A stretch of 64,000 nucleotides of DNA from SAR324 cluster bacterium (GTDB taxonomy: Bacteria; SAR324; NAC60-12), in assembly GCA_014382365.1 (NCBI GenBank), contig JACNJW010000049.1, positions 1,830-65,829 of the forward strand. Reading direction: 5' to 3'. The translations under genes and the position numbers were made by a program. Positions 3,507-31,170 of this stretch are shown here, one piece after another; within the stretch, counting starts at the first letter, position 1; each line of letters begins with the position of its first letter. The notes beneath the pieces were generated by a model, which worked only from the letters and a program-made list of their open reading frames with translations, searched no databases and was not told the DNA's origin.

Positions 3507-4679
3507 CTACCAGGACATTTTACAATCTTTAGCGTAAGGATCCTGGTGGTTGGTGTAAACAGTTTTTACAATACTAGTGGTGTAATTCCCATCAACATCC
3601 TTGACTGCTTTTCGCAAGTAAAAATTCTGGATTGGAAAATGGTTATTGCCGTATTTAAACGCTCCACGAACTGAAGGGAAATTTGCTTTACGCATGGCAT
3701 CCCGCATTCCGTCTTTGTTGGACAGATCACCACCAACAGCAGTAACTGCACTGTTAATTAACATAATAGTGTCGTATGACTGTGCTGCATAAAATGTTGG
3801 ATAGCGACCGGTTTTCTTGCGGTAATCTGCAACAAAGCGCTTATTGACTGCATTATCCAGATCCGGTGCCCAGAACATTGTCATCAAACTATCCTCTGCT
3901 AAATCTTTCATTCGTGGCAGACTCAGGGAGTCAACAGTAAATGCGGAATAAAGAGGTATACTTCCTTTCAATCCTGCTTGTGAATACTGTTTGAAAAACT
4001 GCATTCCATGTTTTCCTGGATAGAAAACGAAGACTGCATCAGGTTTCGCAGCACGAATTTTGGCTAGTTCCGCAGAAAAATCAAGCTGTGCCGGAAACTT
4101 GGTCATATCTTTTCCAACGATATTTCCTTTAAATGTTCTAGTAACACCAGCAACCATACCTTTACCAGCAGCATAGTTTGGTGCCATGATGTAGAGGTTT
4201 TTGATGCCAAGTTGATTTAAGACCTCACCCATCGCCATCGTGGTTTGGTCATTCTGCCAGGAAGCAGAGAAAAAATCCTCATGACATAGTTTACCTGCAA
4301 CTGGTCCTGGACCAGCATTGGAAGTAATCATGAAAGGACCTTTACCAACAGCAGAGTTACGGGAAGCCATTAAAACGTGACTCCAAATGTAGCCGGTGAC
4401 AAAATGAACTTTGTCTTTTTTGACCAACTTTTCTGTTTTTTGTTTACCGACTGCGGGCTTGAAGGTGTCATCCTCATAAAACATCTGCACATCTGAATTT
4501 CCCATTTTACGACCCAGATGATCCAGTGCCAGTTCTACTGCATCACGCATATCATTTCCTATTGCTCCAGCACCCCCTGTGAGTGTGGTAACAAATCCAA
4601 TTTTGACTGTTTCAGCCACGGCAACCTGAGTAATCAGCATTGCACCTAGGGACAGAGCCCCTAAAAGACGAAATTTCAT
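3507..4679 (-). CDS. ABC transporter substrate-binding protein, Liv/HAAT family, probably for aromatic acids
   Basis: Signal peptide, VKIGFVTTLTG, APNYAAGK, LDFSAELAKIRAAKPDAVFVFYPG. Substrate inferred from adjacency to benzoyl-CoA genes. Confidence 0.85.
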   Translation of the reverse strand: MKFRLLGALSLGAMLITQVAVAETVKIGFVTTLTGGAGAIGNDMRDAVELALDHLGRKMGNSDVQMFYEDDTFKPAVGKQKTEKLVKKDKVHFVTGYIWSHVLMASRNSAVGKGPFMITSNAGPGPVAGKLCHEDFFSASWQNDQTTMAMGEVLNQLGIKNLYIMAPNYAAGKGMVAGVTRTFKGNIVGKDMTKFPAQLDFSAELAKIRAAKPDAVFVFYPGKHGMQFFKQYSQAGLKGSIPLYSAFTVDSLSLPRMKDLAEDSLMTMFWAPDLDNAVNKRFVADYRKKTGRYPTFYAAQSYDTIMLINSAVTAVGGDLSNKDGMRDAMRKANFPSVRGAFKYGNNHFPIQNFYLRKAVKDVDGNYTTSIVKTVYTNHQDPYAKDCKMSW

Positions 4680-8094: not shown

Positions 8095-8118
8095 AAAGTT
8101 GCATTAAAGTACTTATTT
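8095..8118. promoter_or_regulatory. Candidate BadM (Rrf2) operator, copy 1
   Basis: AAAGTTGCATTAAAGTACTTATTT; 17/24 identical to the palindrome at 41889-41912; lies between back-to-back -35 boxes. Confidence 0.55.
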
Positions 8119-8129
8119 CTATTTTATGC

Positions 8130-8158
8130 TTGACACAGCGGCTGAATAAGAGTAAATT
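8130..8158 (+). promoter_or_regulatory. Sigma70-type promoter P1 for had-oah-dch-bcr
   Basis: TTGACA (8130-8135)-N17-TAAATT (8153-8158). Confidence 0.55.
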
Positions 8159-8165
8159 CTTTACT

Positions 8166-8189
8166 AAAGACGCATTAAAGTACTTATTT
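8166..8189. promoter_or_regulatory. Candidate BadM (Rrf2) operator, copy 2
   Basis: AAAGACGCATTAAAGTACTTATTT; 18/24 identical to the palindrome at 41889-41912; 71 bp downstream of copy 1. Confidence 0.55.
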
Positions 8190-8201
8190 CTAATTTATTA
8201 C

Positions 8202-8287: not shown

Positions 8288-9358
8288 ATGACATTTACTG
8301 CATATCGCTGGATTATGACAGCAGTAGGAGAACCTTTAAACAAAGTTGCTTTTGAGCCACTTCCTCTGCAAGAGGGGGAAGTGTTGGTGGAAATTGCGGG
8401 TTGCGGTGTTTGTCACACCGACTTGGGATTTTATTATGACGGAGTACGTACTAATCATGACTTACCGCTAGCTCTTGGACATGAGGTCAGTGGGCGTGTT
8501 CTTGAAACATCTCATGGTTCTGAAGAATGGCAGGGATGTGCGGTGATTGTTCCGGCAGTGATGCCCTGCGGAGAATGTGAACTTTGTAAAAAAGGACGCA
8601 GTTCAATTTGCCGTAGTCAGAAAATGCCTGGTAACGATATTCAGGGTGGATTTGCTTCGCACATAGTTGTTCCTGCAAATGGCTTATGTCAAGTTGATGA
8701 AGAACGGCTTGCAAAAGCAGGGTTGGCTTTGGCAGATCTTTCAGTAATTGCAGATGCGGTTACAACACCGTATCAGGCTGCCGTTCGGGCCGGAGTTGGA
8801 AAAGGTGATGTGGCAATCGTTGTCGGTGTCGGTGGAATAGGTGGAAATGCTGCACAGATTAATGCTGCACTCGGTGCAACCGTAATTGCTATTGATGTGG
8901 ATGATGATAAGTTAGCTGTCCTCAGGGATTATGGAGTTTCGCTGGTACTCAATTCAAAAGAATTTGATCATCGTGAATTAAAAAAACAGGTGCGGGCCTT
9001 TGTTAAAGAACAAGGTTTGTCTCCTTTGGAATGGTTCATTTACGAATGTTCCGGAACAGGAGCCGGACAGGCAACTGCTTTCAATTTGCTGACACACGGT
9101 GCAACTCTCAGTGTACTCGGCTTCACAATGGATAAAACGGAAATGCGTCTCTCAAACCTGATGGCATTTGATGCCAGAGCGTTAGGGAACTGGGGTTGTG
9201 CTCCAGAACTTTATGGAGCAGCTTTAGATTTGGTGTTGGATGGAAAAGTAAAATTAGCACCATTTGTTGAACAGCATCCGCTGGATTCCATTAATGAGAT
9301 ATTTGCAGCTGGACATGCTCACAAGTTGTCACGCAGGGCAATTTTAGTACCGGCGTAA
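8288..9358 (+). CDS. had: 6-hydroxycyclohex-1-ene-1-carbonyl-CoA dehydrogenase (Zn-dependent MDR family)
   Basis: CGVCHTD, GHE, CGECELC..C structural Zn site, [18 protein letters not shown]; first gene of the had-oah-dch-bcr order. Confidence 0.93.
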
Positions 9359-16770: not shown

Positions 16771-16894
16771 TGTTATTCCTGCGAAAGCTGGAGTCTATTC
16801 CCCGATCAGGTCGAGGACAAGCATTTCAGATACTTACAAGTTCCTGGATTCCCACTCCCCGATCAAGCCGAGGACAAGCTTCGTGGAAATGATA
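16771..16894. repeat. Degenerate REP/MITE-like composite palindromic element
   Basis: Outer inverted arms TGTTATTCCTGCGAAAGCTGGAGTC ... GGATTCCCAC/TTCGTGGAAATGATA, with two copies of TCCCCGATCARGYCGAGGACAAGC (16799-16822, 16856-16879; 22/24 identical); lies between convergent genes. Confidence 0.65.
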
Positions 16895-17071
16895 AGTATT
16901 TACGAAAGCAACACTGTTGAAATATACCTCAATTTACGTGAATGTAAAATACTCAAGCATGATTTGTGTCATTATAAATTATCCTCTAAGTCTGCAAAAA
17001 CAGTCCAGAAAGTTTAATGATTGCAGTTTAGATCAAGTATTATGGTGCATACTGAGTATCTTTCCCCCTTT

Positions 17072-19027
17072 CTATTGGATCTTACGTACAGTATTGTTGC
17101 TGTATTCCGCCACATAGAGGTTTGTCCCGTCAGTCGTGATTTTGTATGGAGTATAAAATTGTGCACTCGTTCCTGTTGCATCGGAACTGCCTGCTGTTCC
17201 GGATCCCGCAACGGTTGTCACTACCCCTGTGGAAATTACGATCTTACGAATCTTATTACTGCTGGACGTAACATAGAGGTTGATACCGTCAGTTGTGATA
17301 CCATATAGACTTTTAAAACGTGCGTCTGCACCTGTTGCATCGGTAGTCCCTGAACTATTATAAGTCCCGGCAAGAGTTGTCACTACACCGCTGGAAATTA
17401 CAACCTTACGAATCGTATTTTTGCCGTCAGCCACGTAGATGTTGGTGCCGTCTGTAGTGACATCCTGCGGGTTATAAAATTTTGCGCTCGTTCCTGTAGC
17501 ATCGGTAGACCCTATAATTCCCATAGTCCCGGCAAGAGTGCTAACGAATCCGCTGGAAATCACGATCTTTCGAATCGCACGGTTATCCCTGTCAGCAACA
17601 TAAAGGTTTGTTCCATCCGTTGTAATTCCTATTGGATAATTAAATTGTGCGTTTGTACCTGTAGTATTATCGGTTGTTCCGCTACTCCCAGTCCCGGCAA
17701 GAGTTGTCACTACACCACTGGAAATCACGATCTTACGTATCTTATTGTTGCCGGTATCAGCAACATAAAGGTTTGTTCCATCCGTTGTAATTGCCTTCGG
17801 CTGTCTAAAGGTTGCACTTGTTCCTGTTGCATCGTTGCTTCCACTAGTTCCTGCAGTTCCCGCAAGAGTCGTCACTACCCCGGTTGAAATGACAATCTTG
17901 CGGATCGTGTGGTTTCCATTTTCAGTTACATAGAGATTCGTTCCGTCCGTAGTGATTCCGGCTGGGGTGTCAAATTTTGCACTTGTTCCTGTTGCGTCAG
18001 TGTAGCCGGATGTGCCCCCTGCAAGAGTAGTCACTTCTGTAGAGAGGCTCAGAGCAGTCCCCTGGATTGCACCACCTAAGAGTGGGTTGGTGGGTGTAGC
18101 ACTGACTTCTGATGAAAGAGAGCCTGTGCTGGCAGCGTCAACCGCGGCAACTTTATAATAATAAGTTGTATCATTGCTCAGACTTGTATGTGTGTAATTA
18201 TCATTCGTTATGCTAGTAATAGCAGAACTGGAAGAAGTGATCCCGCTGGAAGTTCCCCAGTAAAGAGTGTAACTGGCAGCACCACTGACGTTGTCCCAAT
18301 CCAGTGAGTTCTGGGTATTTCCAGCAGTTACAGATAAGTTTGCAGGTACAGAAAGAACAGGTGATACACTAACCTCAGATGAAAGAGATCCTGTGCTGGC
18401 AGCGTCAACTGCGGCAACTTTGTAATAATAAGTACTGCCGTTACTCAAGCTCGTATGCGTGTAATTGTCGGTTGAGATACTGGTAATGGAAGAACTGGAT
18501 GAAGTGATTCCACTGGAAGTACCCCAGAAAAGAGTGTAGCTCGCCGCGCCGCTGACTGCGTCCCAGTCCAGTACCGCTGTTCCGGTAGTTGCTGTGGCGC
18601 TCAAATTTGCCGGCGCCGAAAGCGTGCTCGAAGAACTACCTCCGGAATCTGCAGTGGGCGTGGCATTGACCTCGCTGGTGAGTGTGCCAGTTCCGGAAGA
18701 GTTAACTGCTGCAACCTTGTAGTAGTAAGTTGTGCCGTTGCTCAAACTTGTGTGTGTATAAGAGTTTGTACTTATTGAAGCAATTGAGGTGTCACTGGAG
18801 GAAACACCGGAGGATGTTTTCCAGAAAAGTGTGTAGCTAGATGCTCCACTGACCGCACTCCAGGATAGAGCTACTTGACTGCTGCCAGCAGTCGCTGTTA
18901 AAGCGGAAGGCGTAGAAAGAGTACTGTCTGCGCTTTCTTCGATTCCGCAAGCTGCGAGATACAGTGCGAATGATAATAATAATGATATGCTAAACAGTTT
19001 TTTACATGTCTCTGTATGGCTGGTCAT
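17072..19027 (-). CDS. Ser/Thr-rich surface lipoprotein with three fibronectin type III domains and an NHL-repeat beta-propeller
   Basis: Lipobox LAAC; three W..VSGA.SYTL.W...YTHTSL.N..TYYYKVAAV repeats; about six F..P..ITTDGTNLYVAD..N..IRKI repeats. Confidence 0.85.
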   Translation of the reverse strand: MTSHTETCKKLFSISLLLSFALYLAACGIEESADSTLSTPSALTATAGSSQVALSWSAVSGASSYTLFWKTSSGVSSSDTSIASISTNSYTHTSLSNGTTYYYKVAAVNSSGTGTLTSEVNATPTADSGGSSSSTLSAPANLSATATTGTAVLDWDAVSGAASYTLFWGTSSGITSSSSSITSISTDNYTHTSLSNGSTYYYKVAAVDAASTGSLSSEVSVSPVLSVPANLSVTAGNTQNSLDWDNVSGAASYTLYWGTSSGITSSSSAITSITNDNYTHTSLSNDTTYYYKVAAVDAASTGSLSSEVSATPTNPLLGGAIQGTALSLSTEVTTLAGGTSGYTDATGTSAKFDTPAGITTDGTNLYVTENGNHTIRKIVISTGVVTTLAGTAGTSGSNDATGTSATFRQPKAITTDGTNLYVADTGNNKIRKIVISSGVVTTLAGTGSSGTTDNTTGTNAQFNYPIGITTDGTNLYVADRDNRAIRKIVISSGFVSTLAGTMGIIGSTDATGTSAKFYNPQDVTTDGTNIYVADGKNTIRKVVISSGVVTTLAGTYNSSGTTDATGADARFKSLYGITTDGINLYVTSSSNKIRKIVISTGVVTTVAGSGTAGSSDATGTSAQFYTPYKITTDGTNLYVAEYSNNTVRKIQ

Positions 19028-19125
19028 AAGCTCTCTCCTTCTTAATGTGAGTCAGTTATTGGGAATAGTCTGTGCTGATTCTGTGAGGAAAGTTTAGGAT
19101 CTGTATCCCAAGCAGACAAGTTATT

Positions 19126-19209
19126 TATTGGCAGGAATTGGGAGTAAATAACCTAACACTTTGAAATAATTACTAATTATACAATATTATATATTGGCAG
19201 GAATTGGGA
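19126..19209. repeat. Perfect 18-bp direct repeat pair, candidate operator sites
   Basis: TATTGGCAGGAATTGGGA at 19126-19143 and 19192-19209 (66-bp period); the core GAATTGGGA recurs at 22181-22189. Confidence 0.8.
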
Positions 19210-19323
19210 TGAATTTTATATCATACTGATATTACTCTATATATAATTTGTTGCAAATTCGTTTAAAATTAAATTTAAACAAACTGGAGACACATGCTTT
19301 TCATAGAATAATGAAGTGCTGTA

Positions 19324-22116
19324 TTAAAGAGAATGTTTTTGCTGAAGCTGATTAAAAAGATTAAGTGCAGAATTCAGTTTTTGGCGTTGCTCATCATCAA
19401 TTGGAGCATTATCAAGAACATACTGCACAGTCTGCAGAACTTTTCGCCAACGTGGGTGTTGGGGAAGAGTTGCGAGTGTGAGATATTTTTCCAGCCCTCT
19501 GGCTCTCCAGGCACCAGTGGCTTCAAGGTGGGTTCCCCATGTTTTGCTTTCCTGTGCTAAATCAATAATACTTAGCTGACTGGCTTGTTCCCAGACAAAT
19601 AAAGTGGTAGTAACTAAAGCAACCAGTGCTTCACGAGGCAACCGACGTTCCTTTTCTTCGGTGAGCAGACGAGTACTCAGGTATTGTGAAAGCTTCAAAT
19701 GCACTGAAATTCTGGCCAGCAACTCCTGTTTTTTAAGCGGTTTACACAAATAATCATTTGCTCCACTAGCATATCCGTTAGCAATATCTTCGTCTCCATT
19801 CAGCGCTGTCAATAATAATACAGGTAACTCTTCCTGAGAGTAGTGCTCCCGAATCAGTTCACATAATTCCAGCCCGTCCAGTCCAGGCATTAGTACATCC
19901 AGTAAAATCAGATTTACTTTAGATTGCGCCAGCAGGTCTAAAACTTCTTGACTTTCTGTACAGAAAGTTACCTGAAAATCTTCTGTTGACAAATAACCTC
20001 TGATGACATGAAGGTTTGTGATGTCATCATCCACTGCCAGGATATGTAAACCTTTCCCCTTGAGTGGAATTAAATTTTCGACTTCTTGATCCATTTCAGG
20101 AGCAACTGTTTCCAGAATTGTTGAGCTGGCCGAATCTTCAACTTTGGAACCTTGCGGAATTATACTTAAACTGCTTTGAGCCAGCGGAAGCGTAAAACTA
20201 AAAACACTACCTTTTTCGGAAGATGCATCAAGCCAGATCTTACCCGCATGGGCCTCTACCAATTCTTTACAGATACTCAATCCAAGACCCAGACCCATTG
20301 TAATTCCGGCATTGCTTTCTCCCTGATCAAATGCTTGAAAAATTTTTTCCTGCTGACCTGGAATAATTCCTGAGCCTGTATCAACAACCTGTATCAGAAT
20401 ATAATTGTCTTCTGTAGTAGCAGTGACACTAATGCTTCCGTTTGTAGTGAATTTAATTGAGTTTTCTACCAGGTTGAACAACACCTGCTGCAGCCTGTCC
20501 GGATCAGCGTAAATACTTGGTAAATTAGGAGGTACCAGGTTGTCCAGGCGAATGTTCTTGTTATTGAGTTGTGGAGAACTTTGTCGCAGCACATTTTTTG
20601 CCAAGGCATGAAGATTTACCTCACTCAGCTTCATATTCAGCTTAGTGTTTCGGATTGCCGATAAATCGAGCAGGTCTCCAACCAGACGATTGACGCGTCT
20701 GATGCTGGACAAGGCCAGCTCCAGCATTTTTCGCTGCTCATTAAACAAAGGGGCTTGCAGCGATTCCTGAACAGTTTCCATTAGTCCGCTCACCACATGC
20801 AGCGGTGTACGCAGTTCATGGGAAGTGTTAGCCAGTAGTTGATCCTTGAATTGATTTTTTTCCTGCAGTTGTCTCACACTTTCTTGATGCGCATTAAGAG
20901 CATCTTTTTGAGCAAGTTCTTTTTCCCGGCGTAACTTTCCTGCTCGTACTGCCAGTGCCAGAGAGAGAAAAATAATTTCCAGAAATGAGCTAAATTGAAA
21001 AATGGTATAACCTCCGGTTTTGACTTCCAAAAAACCTAAAAATACTAAAGTAATCCCCAAAAGAGCAAGGGGCGGAAAACTTCGGGCCAGTACAAAAAAA
21101 CGTGCTGAGACATCTCCTTTCGACAAGTACTGAACAGAAACCACAATGATTGTGCAAGTTGCCAGGATTAAGGCCAACATCAACACGAATGGATTAACAC
21201 CTGGAATTAGAGGTACATAAATAGAGCAAATGGAAATAAACTTTAAGATGTTAATGAAGCGATGCGTTAATGGAGAAAGCTGTTGTGTTTGAAGAAAAGA
21301 TTGTGTTGTACTGAGTGCAAAAAAAATATACAGACTAACTGAAAAACCAAATACTGTGACTCCCCAGTCCAGATTAGCGGGAAATAAAAGTAAGCCTGCA
21401 TATCCATTTATTGTAAAAGACATCATCATGGTCGCAAGTGTTAATAAAGTGTAATCTAAATACACTCTTTCCCTGAGATTTATAAAAAGGAATAAAGTAT
21501 AGAGCATCATTCCTCCCATTGCTCCATAATAGACGCCGTGCATTAACTGTTTCGTTTGTTCCTGCTTTGCATAAACTTTTTCGGCAAGCATCCACAATGA
21601 AATAAATATCTGGCGGTCATTGGATACATGAAAGTAAAGAGTCGAGTCTTGACCTGAAAGATCATCCAGCTGAAACAATGGAAGGCGAAAATTTTCTGTT
21701 CTCTGCTGAATTGGAGTCTCTGTTCCTCTGCTGATCCGTCTGTAGCCTTGTTCCCCCTGCTTGATATACATATCAAACTGGGTTAAGAACGGGTGGTTGT
21801 TTTCTATCACCCAGTTGGAAACATCTGTCTGGTTCTCAATTCTCAGCTTTATCCACCAGGAAGAAGATGAATTTCCTAGCTTAAAAATAATTTTATTAAT
21901 CTTTTTGAATTGAGAACTCCATGCGGCGGAAGAGACTTGATCGATCGACCAGGAATTTGACGGATCCTCAGCCAGTTCCAGGAAAAGTCCTGGATAATAG
22001 CTTTTCTCTTCTTCATTCAGTACCAGGTGTGATGACGCATCTAAGGCAGGAAGCACCCAAAAAAAAAGTAAAATAACTGAAAACAAGAGTCGAAAATAGT
22101 ATCTCAACATCTTCAA
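19324..22116 (-). CDS. 7TM-DISM hybrid sensor histidine kinase/receiver with a C-terminal ChiS-family-like DNA-binding domain
   Basis: Periplasmic DISM-type domain, about 7 TM helices, H-box SHELRTPL, QVLFNLVENSIKF, DTGSGI, GLGLGL, REC (AVDDD, LLDVLMP, DYLCKP), tail LEKYL...LP.HPRWRKVL. Alternative ATG at 22110. Confidence 0.88.
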   Translation of the reverse strand: MKMLRYYFRLLFSVILLFFWVLPALDASSHLVLNEEEKSYYPGLFLELAEDPSNSWSIDQVSSAAWSSQFKKINKIIFKLGNSSSSWWIKLRIENQTDVSNWVIENNHPFLTQFDMYIKQGEQGYRRISRGTETPIQQRTENFRLPLFQLDDLSGQDSTLYFHVSNDRQIFISLWMLAEKVYAKQEQTKQLMHGVYYGAMGGMMLYTLFLFINLRERVYLDYTLLTLATMMMSFTINGYAGLLLFPANLDWGVTVFGFSVSLYIFFALSTTQSFLQTQQLSPLTHRFINILKFISICSIYVPLIPGVNPFVLMLALILATCTIIVVSVQYLSKGDVSARFFVLARSFPPLALLGITLVFLGFLEVKTGGYTIFQFSSFLEIIFLSLALAVRAGKLRREKELAQKDALNAHQESVRQLQEKNQFKDQLLANTSHELRTPLHVVSGLMETVQESLQAPLFNEQRKMLELALSSIRRVNRLVGDLLDLSAIRNTKLNMKLSEVNLHALAKNVLRQSSPQLNNKNIRLDNLVPPNLPSIYADPDRLQQVLFNLVENSIKFTTNGSISVTATTEDNYILIQVVDTGSGIIPGQQEKIFQAFDQGESNAGITMGLGLGLSICKELVEAHAGKIWLDASSEKGSVFSFTLPLAQSSLSIIPQGSKVEDSASSTILETVAPEMDQEVENLIPLKGKGLHILAVDDDITNLHVIRGYLSTEDFQVTFCTESQEVLDLLAQSKVNLILLDVLMPGLDGLELCELIREHYSQEELPVLLLTALNGDEDIANGYASGANDYLCKPLKKQELLARISVHLKLSQYLSTRLLTEEKERRLPREALVALVTTTLFVWEQASQLSIIDLAQESKTWGTHLEATGAWRARGLEKYLTLATLPQHPRWRKVLQTVQYVLDNAPIDDEQRQKLNSALNLFNQLQQKHSL

Positions 22117-22231
22117 ATCAATAAGCCAAAATTTGAGAGTGAACTAAAATTAAATAAACATAAATCAAGAGAGTATACTAGAATTGGGAGATTAGCAATT
22201 ATATTTCAGAACAGTTGTGATCGGTTTGAGT

Positions 22232-22993
22232 TTAATTCAAGTATTCCAGAACACACTTTGTGTCTCTTTCAAGCAGTTCATAAAATTTTAAATTATGACC
22301 GAGATCCGGACTGGCCCGGTGTCGCAATTCGTGAACCAGAGTACTCAATAACTGTGTTACTTTGGGCCAGCCAAAAAACCAAAAATTTGAGCGGTGAATC
22401 TTGATCTGCTCTTCTCCCCAGTAAACTCCTGCTTCTCCGTATTGGATCCAGTTCTTATGCACCGGACGTTCTCTAGTATAGCGAATAGGTACAGTCCGAA
22501 TTATGACTTTCATGTTTGATGGGAAACAGGGGATTGCTAAAAGACCTTCTGCGTATTTCATAACCTGTTGTTGCCTGGTGTCTGTATTCTCGAGGAAAGG
22601 CTCAAGCAGGTGCCAACGATCCAGAACAAAAAAAATCGTTCCAGCAAAAAGTAGAAGAGCTATCAACCAATGTGCAGCTTTAGATAAAGTTGGTTTTGTA
22701 GCAGCAGATTTGTCCAGATGTCTTTGTTTCCATTGCAGCCACTCTCTCCATTCCTGTTGCAGGTTATTGATTTGCTCAAATTTCCGTGATTCAGGAATCT
22801 TTTCCAGGGAGTTTATGTTTTGCGGTAACTCTGGAATTTGGAAAAACAAATGTTCACTACAATTTTGGCATTGAATTCTTACAAAGCGCTCCCCTGCTTT
22901 GCCTGCCATTGGTATAAGTTTGAAATTTTCTTCAGCACAGGAAGGACAGTGCAGTGTCACATCTTCATCAGTAGAGCTGACGTCAGAGGTCAT
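22232..22993 (-). CDS. Hypothetical membrane protein: Zn ribbon + TM helix + SprT/WLM-like zinc metallopeptidase motif
   Basis: CPSC...CQNC, one hydrophobic segment, LVHELRH...LGHNLKFY. Confidence 0.6.
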   Translation of the reverse strand: MTSDVSSTDEDVTLHCPSCAEENFKLIPMAGKAGERFVRIQCQNCSEHLFFQIPELPQNINSLEKIPESRKFEQINNLQQEWREWLQWKQRHLDKSAATKPTLSKAAHWLIALLLFAGTIFFVLDRWHLLEPFLENTDTRQQQVMKYAEGLLAIPCFPSNMKVIIRTVPIRYTRERPVHKNWIQYGEAGVYWGEEQIKIHRSNFWFFGWPKVTQLLSTLVHELRHRASPDLGHNLKFYELLERDTKCVLEYLN

Positions 22994-29679: not shown

Positions 29680-31170
29680 ATGTCGGTTAGTGTTGAAGAA
29701 ACAATAAAATCAATTGGAATGAAAGATTCCTCTTTATTCAGGCAGCAGGTTTATATTAATGGGGAATGGTCTGATGCAGACAGCGGAGAAACTACAGAAA
29801 TAACTAATCCAGCAAACGGGAAGGTATTAGGTACTGTACCGAACTGCGGAGCCTCTGAGGCCAAACGTGCAATTGAAGCAGCCAATGCTGCCTGGCCGGA
29901 ATGGCGTTCAAAAACTGCTAAAGAACGTGCTGTTATCATGCGTCGCTGGTATGAGCTGATGCTGGAGAATCAAGAGGATCTTGCTCGCTTGATGACTGCG
30001 GAACAGGGGAAACCTTTGTCAGAGTCACGAGGGGAAATTGCTTATGCGGCCAGTTTTATTGAATGGTTTGGAGAAGAAGGAAAACGCTTATATGGAGATA
30101 CAATTCCGGCACATGCCCCAGATAAACGAATTGTAGTAATAAAGCAGCCGATTGGAGTTACTGTTGCAATCACCCCCTGGAATTTTCCTGCAGCCATGAT
30201 TACCAGAAAAGCTGCACCGGCATTGGCGGCAGGATGTCCGATGGTTATAAAGCCGGCACCAGATACACCATTTTCTGCTTTTGCTCTTTGTGAGTTGGCA
30301 GAACGTGCTGGAGTACCAGCAGGTATTCTTAGTACAGTTACAGGAGATGCAGTAGGCATAGGTAGTGAATTTACCGGAAATCCGATTGTCAGGAAATTAA
30401 GTTTTACGGGTTCAACCGGAGTTGGCAAACTGCTGATGAAACAATGTTCTGGAACTGTAAAGAAACTTGCACTTGAACTGGGTGGAAATGCGCCTTTTAT
30501 TGTGTTTGACGATGCAGATCTTAGAGCGGCTCTGCCTGGTGCAATGGCAAGTAAGTTCAGAAATGCAGGACAGACCTGCGTGTGTGCAAACAGGATAATG
30601 GTGCAGAGTAAGGTTTATGATCAATTTACGGAAATGCTGGCTAAGGCAGCACAAGACTTAAAGGTTGCAGACGGTTTTGAAGATGGAGCAGAACAGGGGC
30701 CGTTGATTAATGAAGCAGCAATCACAAAAATTGAAAGTCATGTTGAGGATGCTCTTGCCAAAGGTGCAAAGTTACTTGCAGGTGGTCATCGACACAAACT
30801 TGGTGGAACCTTTTTTGAGCCAACAGTACTATCCGGAGTAACAACAGATATGCTGGTTGCCAAAGAAGAAACTTTTGGACCAATGGCACCTGTTTTTAAA
30901 TTTGAGACTGAAGAAGAGGCCATCGCCCTGGCAAATGATACCGAATTTGGTTTGGCTGCCTATTTTTATAGTCGAGATATTGGCCGAATATGGAGAGTCT
31001 CGGAAGCCCTTGAATATGGAATTGTTGGTGTAAATGAAGGAATAATTTCCACTGAAGTAGCTCCTTTTGGCGGAGTCAAAGAATCCGGAACAGGGCGTGA
31101 AGGTTCTAAATACGGAATCGAAGATTACCTGGAATTAAAGTATATTTGCATGGGTGGTATTAACAGCTAA
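29680..31170 (+). CDS. gabD: NAD(P)-dependent succinate-semialdehyde dehydrogenase
   Basis: ITPWNFPAAMITRK, FTGST, LELGGNAPF, FRNAGQTCVCAN, EETFGP; ATG 29680 follows GGAGGA. Confidence 0.9.
   Translation: MSVSVEETIKSIGMKDSSLFRQQVYINGEWSDADSGETTEITNPANGKVLGTVPNCGASEAKRAIEAANAAWPEWRSKTAKERAVIMRRWYELMLENQEDLARLMTAEQGKPLSESRGEIAYAASFIEWFGEEGKRLYGDTIPAHAPDKRIVVIKQPIGVTVAITPWNFPAAMITRKAAPALAAGCPMVIKPAPDTPFSAFALCELAERAGVPAGILSTVTGDAVGIGSEFTGNPIVRKLSFTGSTGVGKLLMKQCSGTVKKLALELGGNAPFIVFDDADLRAALPGAMASKFRNAGQTCVCANRIMVQSKVYDQFTEMLAKAAQDLKVADGFEDGAEQGPLINEAAITKIESHVEDALAKGAKLLAGGHRHKLGGTFFEPTVLSGVTTDMLVAKEETFGPMAPVFKFETEEEAIALANDTEFGLAAYFYSRDIGRIWRVSEALEYGIVGVNEGIISTEVAPFGGVKESGTGREGSKYGIEDYLELKYICMGGINS

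Follow-up and report, generated by a model that had tools for sequence, protein, structure and literature searches.

Two adjacent genes encode a sensor kinase and a lipoprotein

A 64,000-nucleotide (nt) stretch of a SAR324 cluster bacterium genome (GCA_014382365.1, contig JACNJW010000049.1, positions 1,830 to 65,829; hereafter the window) holds two consecutive minus-strand genes, a hybrid sensor kinase gene and behind it a lipoprotein gene, with 296 bp between them in the open reading frame (ORF) list. We describe computational evidence that the kinase ends in a DNA-binding domain of the family named for Vibrio cholerae ChiS and that it is likely to regulate the lipoprotein gene directly. The kinase comprises 928 residues from ATG 22110 or 930 from TTG 22116, and we place its start at the ATG because an identical database protein (P0003) is 928 residues long. 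The genes and protein domains are:

17072..19027, minus: lipoprotein gene, 651 residues (translation, Pfam)
19324..22110 (22116 with the TTG start), minus: hybrid sensor kinase gene (ORF list, translation)
21595..21981, minus: 7TMR-DISMED2 extracellular sensor domain, residues 46-174 (Pfam PF07696, E 1.3e-23, 83.9 bits)
20947..21549, minus: 7TMR-DISM_7TM seven-helix membrane domain, residues 190-390 (Pfam PF07695, E 1.7e-25, 90.6 bits; genome search)
20179..20847, minus: kinase core, HisKA (residues 424-489; PF00512, E 5e-16) and HATPase_c (538-646; PF02518, E 5.6e-28)
19708..20043, minus: receiver domain, residues 692-803, phospho-acceptor Asp740 in LLDVLMPGLDG (PF00072, E 1.6e-25)
19327..19647, minus: predicted ChiS-family DNA-binding domain, a helix-sheet-helix version of a helix-turn-helix, at the extreme C-terminus (match to PDB 7KPO, AlphaFold2 model, Foldseek)

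The front half of the kinase is a 7TMR-DISM receptor. Behind a signal-peptide-like N-terminus come the DISMED2 domain and then the seven-helix module, both scoring above their Pfam cut-offs. The same chain continues as a hybrid histidine kinase, with the phospho-accepting His of HisKA, an HATPase_c domain and the phospho-accepting Asp of the receiver. The H-box reads SHELRTPL, with a Thr at His+4, and alignment A4 shows almost no variation at H433 and T437 or at D740 and K792 of the receiver. The Pfam scan found no Hpt domain in the protein, and NCBIfam returned hybrid-kinase matches below threshold only. Over its full length, the kinase shares 71% identity with one database ortholog, P0004, and 76% with another, P0005. 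The lipoprotein has a LAAC lipobox, three FN3 domains and an NHL-repeat propeller (Pfam fn3 E 7.5e-17; NHL E 6.9e-16), and the PDB relatives of its NHL part are the propellers of NHLRC2 and SOQ1.

The kinase ends in a predicted ChiS-family DNA-binding domain

Pfam recognizes the receiver up to residue 803 and no domain after it, which leaves ~125 residues, the last ~105 of them the domain proper, running to the stop codon. The translated tail, LAQESKTWGTHLE...RARGLEKYLTLATLPQHPRWRKVLQTVQYVL, has a sole phmmer match in the PDB, the ChiS DNA-binding domain 7KPO (E 7.5e-13, 87 query residues), and the alignment includes the ...LDKYL...TLP..PRWR.VL... motif. An AlphaFold2 model of the tail built on 19 tails (alignment A1; mean predicted local distance difference test score 83.7) places a beta-hairpin between two helices, with predicted elements at 58-65 (helix), 70-72 and 78-80 (strands) and 98-111 (helix). 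Searched against the PDB with Foldseek, the model again matched only 7KPO at E<=0.001 (E 2.5e-8, target-normalised template modelling score 0.89, root-mean-square deviation 1.5 Å, 104 columns).

The residues that ChiS uses on DNA are largely kept. ChiS requires R1068, R1074, K1078, R1090 and R1092 for DNA binding (PMC8092284), and in the 7KPO alignment four of these five have identical counterparts in the kinase (R873, K877, R889 and R891, for R1074, K1078, R1090 and R1092). The fifth, R1068, aligns to Ala866; it was described in ChiS as poorly conserved and a likely determinant of specificity (PMC8092284). By sequence homology and predicted fold, the last ~105 residues of the kinase are thus a true ChiS-family DNA-binding domain. 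A reading made from the letters of the window, hereafter the sequence-only reading, had pointed to ~105 extra residues after the receiver, given the ChiS motif pattern and proposed a ChiS-like DNA-binding tail; translation with Pfam, the 7KPO alignment and the structural comparison bear out all three.

The domain order itself is not new; the sequence-only reading rated its novelty too high. The architecture 7TMR-DISM + HK + Rec + ChiS-DBD (histidine kinase, receiver, DNA-binding domain) is drawn in Fig. 5A of an earlier survey, where 7TMR-DISM ranks among the most abundant architectures carrying the domain (Klancher 2021, mBio, PMC8092284). In the available part of that paper, architectures other than that of ChiS make up 587 of 3,829 hits, the domain is always C-terminal and is confined to the Proteobacteria of the taxonomy then used, and the data set mentions Deltaproteobacteria 93 times. 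The available part lists architectures and gives no target gene, operator or neighbourhood for the 7TMR-DISM proteins, and the terms '7TMR' and 'DISM' do not occur in the accessible portion of the supplements. A full-text literature search found '7TMR-DISM' together with 'ChiS' only in this paper and its preprint, and no published target or operator. What our analysis adds to an already catalogued architecture is the prediction of operator, promoter and target.

A profile search of 1.84 billion cluster representatives identified 984 that carry the tail domain (E<=0.001). Among the best 150 of these, most matches reach to ~20 residues or less from the C-terminus. We scanned the architectures of the 39 representatives of 500-1000 residues among the same 150, leaving out P0003, and 19 of the 39 carry 7TMR-DISM_7TM: 14 with a kinase and/or receiver, five fused directly to the tail domain. 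Another representative, P0096 (560 residues), joins FliM and FliG_M to a C-terminal ChiS domain, an architecture that the legend of Fig. 5A in PMC8092284 does not name.

Paired repeats precede the predicted lipoprotein promoter

The spacer between the two genes contains a pair of direct repeats upstream of a proposed promoter:

19192..19209, minus: distal candidate operator, TCCCAATTCCTGCCAATA, with a pair of CCAAT 10 nt apart (repeat search, genome search)
19126..19143, minus: proximal candidate operator, TCCCAATTCCTGCCAATA, upstream of the -35 with 7 nt in between (repeat search, genome search)
19091..19119, minus: proposed sigma-70-type promoter of the lipoprotein gene, -35 TTGTCT at 19114-19119, 17-nt spacer, -10 TAAACT at 19091-19096 (read by eye)

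The two perfect 18-bp repeats that had been reported for this promoter region are present. Allowing one mismatch, they extend to 23 nt (22/23; 19121-19143 and 19187-19209), with 66 bp from start to start. Each holds CCAAT-N5-CCAAT, whose pentamers stand 10 nt, or one helical turn, apart. Downstream of the proposed promoter, a ribosome-binding site (AAGGAGAG, 19033-19040) and the ATG of the lipoprotein gene lie ~50-60 nt past the -10.

The repeats are specific to this locus. The 16-nt core of the repeat occurs exactly twice in the 3.25-Mb genome (G000). Beyond the 23-nt core, the 66-bp units agree at just 22 of 83 positions, which rules out a recent 66-bp tandem duplication and indicates that only the site was kept. 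We also rejected a sigma-54 reading of the plus strand (TTGGCAGGAATTGGGA) on inspection: its -12 would be GGGA, not TTGC, and both copies face away from the lipoprotein gene. A copy with two mismatches at C17:167894 sits inside the coding sequence of a paralogous lipoprotein, and we take it as chance or shared coding sequence.

Two shorter sequences at the locus resemble parts of the repeats:

19058..19064, minus: possible extra half-site, TCCCAAT, in the predicted 5' leader (repeat family D3)
22181..22190, minus: CTCCCAATTC, matching the proximal operator over its first 10 nt, ~70 nt before the kinase start (noticed post hoc)

The 10-mer CTCCCAATTC occurs eight times in the genome, counting both strands, and two of the eight are in the kinase locus. 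At 22181-22190 it is flanked by TTGCTA and TATACT, which could form a kinase promoter, and it is possibly an autoregulatory half-site of the kinase gene.

Site and proposed promoter recur together at related kinase genes

Site, spacing and proposed promoter recur at two related loci. A metagenome scan gave one useful fragment, a 1.7-kb contig (L039) whose kinase tail (73 residues) is identical to that of the ortholog P0004. After the stop codon comes CTCCCTAATCCTGCCAAT, which agrees with the core at 15 of 17 positions, and after the same gap of 7 nt TTGACT-17-TACTAT; elsewhere the L039 spacer gives no convincing alignment to the kinase-lipoprotein spacer. The second locus is a paralog in the same genome, split between contigs C62 and C20. 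Contig C62 ends 236 bp past its kinase gene, and its final 55 nt are the same as the first 55 nt of C20 read in reverse complement. The final 38 nt have no further copy, and C62 overlaps with no contig but C20. This unique overlap places the C20 lipoprotein gene behind the C62 kinase. The joined spacer reads GGTCCAATCCAGTCCAAT, a 7-nt gap, TTGACC and a TATAAT-like -10, with a second site, GTCCAATAATAT, 69 bp upstream, the same layout as at the kinase locus.

The genome holds 18 copies of CCAAT-N5-CCAAT, of which six are not in long open frames. The kinase and C62/C20 loci account for four of the six, and only at these two loci does the pattern continue with N7-TTG. Another intergenic copy, at C17:186192, has no downstream gene on the same strand. 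Across 45 family genomes the operator pattern matched 22 times, against three for a reversed control; none of the 20 matches outside G000 adjoins a ChiS-domain match, and most of those inspected fall in long open frames such as ABC-type ATPase genes, so that they add no support.

These data bear on whether the repeats have any regulatory function. They might be the relic of a local duplication or a chance repeat in an AT-rich spacer: repeated elements abound between the genes of this genome, and in a crude control over its 596 intergenic regions of 150-500 bp, searched for exact direct repeats within 120 bp, 11 hold one of at least 18 nt, including the kinase-lipoprotein spacer and three CRISPR-like regions on C43. 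Yet the repeat is unique to the kinase locus, unlike the multi-copy elements of the repetitive extragenic palindromic (REP) type, the likeness between its two units is confined to the 23-nt core, and one copy is kept, at the same spacing from the promoter, in an ortholog whose protein has diverged to 71% identity. We regard a functionless repeat as very improbable.

ChiS-domain sensors are paired with lipoprotein genes

The kinase and lipoprotein belong to a set of similar cassettes. The genome encodes five ChiS-domain proteins, and four of them are all four of its above-threshold 7TMR-DISM proteins. The C62 paralog has the same full architecture as the kinase; in those on C17 and C57 the DNA-binding domain is joined straight to the 7TM sensor, without kinase or receiver. 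The fifth (C43) is cytoplasmic, has 459 residues with a matched receiver domain and a middle part that looks PAS-like by eye, and its gene precedes a hybrid kinase gene.

A genome search with the lipoprotein returned four matches: itself, C17 (66%), C20 (57%) and a weak one on C40. The C20 protein has two FN3 domains and an end that we read as C-type-lectin-like, and the C17 gene is directly downstream of the C17 sensor. The three strong matches, the FN3 lipoproteins of this genome, all stand directly behind three of the four 7TMR-DISM/ChiS-domain sensors. The remaining sensor, on C57, has two other lipoprotein-like genes downstream, and a same-genus genome repeats the sensor/FN3-lipoprotein pairing (L042). 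A pattern scan of genome contigs for related loci gave 14 loci, only 4 of them relatives, which come from two metagenome-assembled genomes. The sequence-only reading had proposed surveying homologous kinases for adjacent FN3/NHL genes and the same repeat: the pairing recurs (C17, C62/C20, L042) and so does the site (C62/C20, L039); L039 pairs its kinase with a lipoprotein of another family.

Phased repeats of other sequence lie at several other ChiS-domain loci. The region downstream of the C57 sensor has CCAAAGTGCA twice in tandem; that of L042 has GAAACTGGCCA twice in tandem and a second pair 68 bp on; L048 has three CCACA units at 11-bp spacing; and L052 has three GACCAG and one GACTAG at ~10-bp spacing. 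Exact repeats of at least 10 nt within 120 bp occur in 7 of 11 downstream regions of ChiS-domain genes (one of them REP-like) versus 82 of the 596 controls, a post hoc comparison of related loci with controls from one genome, and a hint only.

The lipoprotein promoter resembles those of the C17 paralog and of a 684-residue FN3/NHL gene in a same-genus genome (G003:C52, L107). The latter has an identical ribosome-binding-site context, and its upstream sequence, GCCAAT-N15-TTGACT-17-CAAACT, is like that at C17. Comparison of this gene with the kinase locus suggests that coding and control regions have been shuffled between cassettes.

Several ChiS-domain cassettes also hold a conserved ORF of 62-69 codons between the repeated sites and the lipoprotein gene (C20 reverse ~29803-30000; L042 ~2515-2703; L050 ~3897-4085; ~265 nt after the kinase stop in L061 and L062). 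At its start the product is similar to a STAS/SpoIIAA-like domain (sub-threshold Pfam match to SpoIIAA-like, E 0.044), and the ORF is absent from the kinase locus and from the C17 and C57 cassettes.

A candidate membrane-bound one-component switch

The architecture of the kinase would fit a membrane-bound one-component regulator, and no partner was found nearby. A domain search of its contig (C21, 96.5 kb) detected no receiver besides the kinase's own, in agreement with the earlier claim that no cognate response regulator lies near, and the only other regulator on the contig is a MarR gene in a neighbouring metabolic cluster. The kinase could instead be a conventional hybrid that feeds a phosphorelay to a distant response regulator, its tail serving dimerisation or autoregulation only and the repeats serving an unlinked regulator. 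Its core and receiver appear catalytically intact, receiver domains were matched 30 times genome-wide, in several cases in stand-alone regulators, and the CTCCCAATTC half-site upstream of its gene would fit autoregulation. Related 7TMR-DISM hybrid kinases such as LadS and RetS, moreover, act through other proteins, and one source labels the ortholog P0004 'LadS'. Set against this are a tail that keeps four of the five residues contacting DNA in ChiS and has the fold of a domain with demonstrated DNA binding, a genome in which Hpt was matched once, in a protein whose motifs we read as those of CheA, and a contig with no further regulator but the MarR gene. The operator and promoter also travel with the kinase gene in the ortholog despite a different downstream gene, and the paralogs that lack kinase and receiver still carry the DNA-binding domain. 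We consider a conventional phosphorelay unlikely.

We favour a ChiS-like scheme contained in one polypeptide. The DISMED2 ectodomain would sense a ligand, and the seven-helix domain would relay the signal to the hybrid kinase/phosphatase, which would set the phosphorylation of its own receiver (His433 to Asp740). Reasoning from ChiS, we expect the state of the receiver to gate the C-terminal domain. This domain would bind the two CCAAT-N5-CCAAT operators, one abutting the -35 and one 66 bp upstream, and recruit RNA polymerase to the weak promoter TTGTCT-17-TAAACT, turning on the FN3/NHL surface lipoprotein gene. Binding to the sites, activation rather than repression, the direction of phospho-control and the ligand are inferred. 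The recurrence of site, spacing and promoter, the cassette pairing and the sole receiver on the contig make direct regulation likely, though inferred. On the sequence evidence, we think it fairly probable that the kinase is a ChiS-like membrane-bound 'one-component' activator of the adjacent lipoprotein gene, acting via the two operators.

Several observations weigh against this assignment. The lipoprotein promoter matches consensus at 8 of 12 positions, and a minus-strand promoter scan was empty at a threshold of 9/12. A scan found no terminator-like site in the 296-bp spacer, so that read-through from the kinase gene is possible. The ortholog on L039 has one copy of the site, not two, and the gene behind its kinase encodes a YHYH-family lipoprotein (Pfam E 2e-22), not an FN3/NHL protein, with another lipoprotein-like start after it; neither the pair of sites nor the target's identity is thus conserved. 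The other 44 family genomes hold no close ortholog (best tail identity outside G000 42%), so the operator footprint rests on one 1.7-kb metagenome contig. Finally, the operator is missing at G003:C52, where a same-genus genome encodes the nearest homolog of the lipoprotein (75% identical) behind a C17-type upstream region. Of the earlier proposal that a membrane-tethered transcription factor directly activates the FN3/NHL lipoprotein gene, the DNA-binding domain is upheld by homology and predicted fold, and the regulatory link is supported by comparison, through a candidate operator and promoter kept at ortholog and paralog and through the recurring pairing; the FN3/NHL target does not extend to the ortholog.

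The lack of a terminator also bears on how the sites might act. The DNA-binding domain could be functional while the repeats mediate repression or autoregulation, or the two genes could be co-transcribed with the sites tuning read-through. The TCCCAAT in the predicted leader and the half-site in the kinase promoter region would fit such roles. The spacer is covered in two 'metatranscriptomic' runs, which are flagged 'probably DNA' and carry no weight; contigs derived from the runs match the window except for one C>T at 20296 in one run, and show no strain variation and no transcript ends. Activator-dependent promoters often deviate from consensus, as this core promoter does, and the proximal site is fixed 7 nt upstream of the -35 in three loci. 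Both points speak for activation, and we give repression or tuned read-through a low probability.

A broader scheme is speculative and, in our estimate, doubtful. The cassettes may be orthogonal, self-contained surface-sensing switches whose sensors would have co-diverged with helically phased operators, each driving its own envelope lipoprotein (FN3/NHL, FN3/C-type lectin or YHYH). That lipoprotein would be a ligand-capturing co-receptor for DISMED2, giving a feedback loop that tunes the surface-binding repertoire to what the marine bacterium touches. In the ChiS circuit, the chitin-binding protein is both product and regulator. A complex prediction for DISMED2 with the mature lipoprotein scored 0.00 ('no answer') and is evidence neither way.

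Relation to known systems

To our knowledge, ChiS is the only studied member of its DNA-binding family, and we know of no 7TMR-DISM receptor with direct transcriptional output. The kinase shares with ChiS a membrane hybrid kinase of HisKA, HATPase_c and receiver, the C-terminal helix-sheet-helix domain and the Thr at His+4 of the phosphatase motif; neither has a cognate response regulator, as judged for the kinase from its 96.5-kb contig. In ChiS this Thr is needed for phosphatase activity, receiver phosphorylation lowers DNA binding, and the kinase activity is dispensable while the phosphatase activity is required (10.1101/2020.01.10.902320). ChiS binds two 13-bp sites that are helically phased with the -35 and contacts the alpha subunit of RNA polymerase (10.1101/2020.01.10.902320); compared by layout, the repeated sites here likewise lie near the -35 of a neighbouring envelope or periplasmic protein gene.

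The differences are equally clear. The sensor is 7TMR-DISMED2 plus 7TM, whereas ChiS has a periplasmic domain restrained by a chitin-binding protein; the gap between receiver and DNA-binding domain is ~20 residues, whereas ChiS (1129 residues) has its receiver Asp at 772 and the domain from 1024; Ala866 occupies the R1068 position; and the candidate target is a lipoprotein gene rather than the chitobiose operon. With its 7TMR-DISM sensor, short linker and neighbours (the lipoprotein gene and genes of aromatic and acyl-CoA metabolism), the kinase is not an ortholog of ChiS as a chitin sensor.

Two other groups invite comparison. ToxR, TcpP, CadC and TfoS form the membrane-bound one-component class in which ChiS is placed (10.1101/2020.01.10.902320). 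Like them, the kinase is predicted to combine membrane sensor and DNA-binding regulator in one polypeptide; unlike them, it comprises seven helices and a complete phospho-switch and carries its ChiS-type domain at the C-terminus. Those four proteins have N-terminal winged-helix or AraC-type domains and one or a few membrane helices. Pseudomonas LadS and RetS share the order DISMED2, 7TM, kinase and receiver; they are not known to have a DNA-binding tail and work via the GacS network.

The locus brings sensor, candidate operator, weak promoter and target together within 5 kb, a set compact enough for reconstruction in a laboratory host. It could test whether the ChiS mechanism of phospho-inhibited, membrane-tethered activation from phased sites holds family-wide, and could serve to screen for DISMED2 ligands with a simple reporter. 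The paralogous cassettes of this one genome are a natural set for tracking the specificity residue against operator sequence. Should the regulatory link fail, what remains is one more catalogued ChiS-family protein.

Other features of the locus and genome

Metabolic clusters flank the kinase/lipoprotein pair on both sides, so that the pair looks like an insert between them. On the 5' side of the kinase gene lie a gene for a 253-residue protein without clear family and then an acyl-CoA metabolism cluster with the MarR gene; on the other flank are benzoyl-CoA-reductase-like genes on the opposite strand. The 253-residue protein (22232-22993, minus) carries a zinc-ribbon-like CxxC...CxxC at its N-terminus, together with one membrane helix and an HELRH motif, with weak Pfam matches only (Zn_ribbon_Elf1 E 0.001; WLM E 0.047). 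It may act as a partner resembling a membrane zinc protease, or be unrelated.

A multi-copy palindromic element (GTCATTCCCGCGAAAGCGGGAATCC...), resembling REP sequences or miniature inverted-repeat transposable elements, fills many intergenic regions and lies at 16780-16900 of the window, at C17:168364-169269, at the ends of C62 and C43, and in L042. Sequencing depth over it rises ~3- to 9-fold, and it seems to break assemblies right after ChiS-domain kinase genes. On C43 (G000 C43:768-3180), a 29-30-nt repeat, GTTCACTGCCGAATAGGCAGCTTAGAAA, recurs at 60-bp spacing in three adjacent regions and looks like a CRISPR (clustered regularly interspaced short palindromic repeats) array. Elsewhere in the window, a perfect 21-nt direct repeat, GCATTAAAGTACTTATTTCTA (~8101-8192; G000 C21:9930, spacing 71), lies in the intergenic region upstream of a plus-strand gene (8288-9358) and may be another operator pair.

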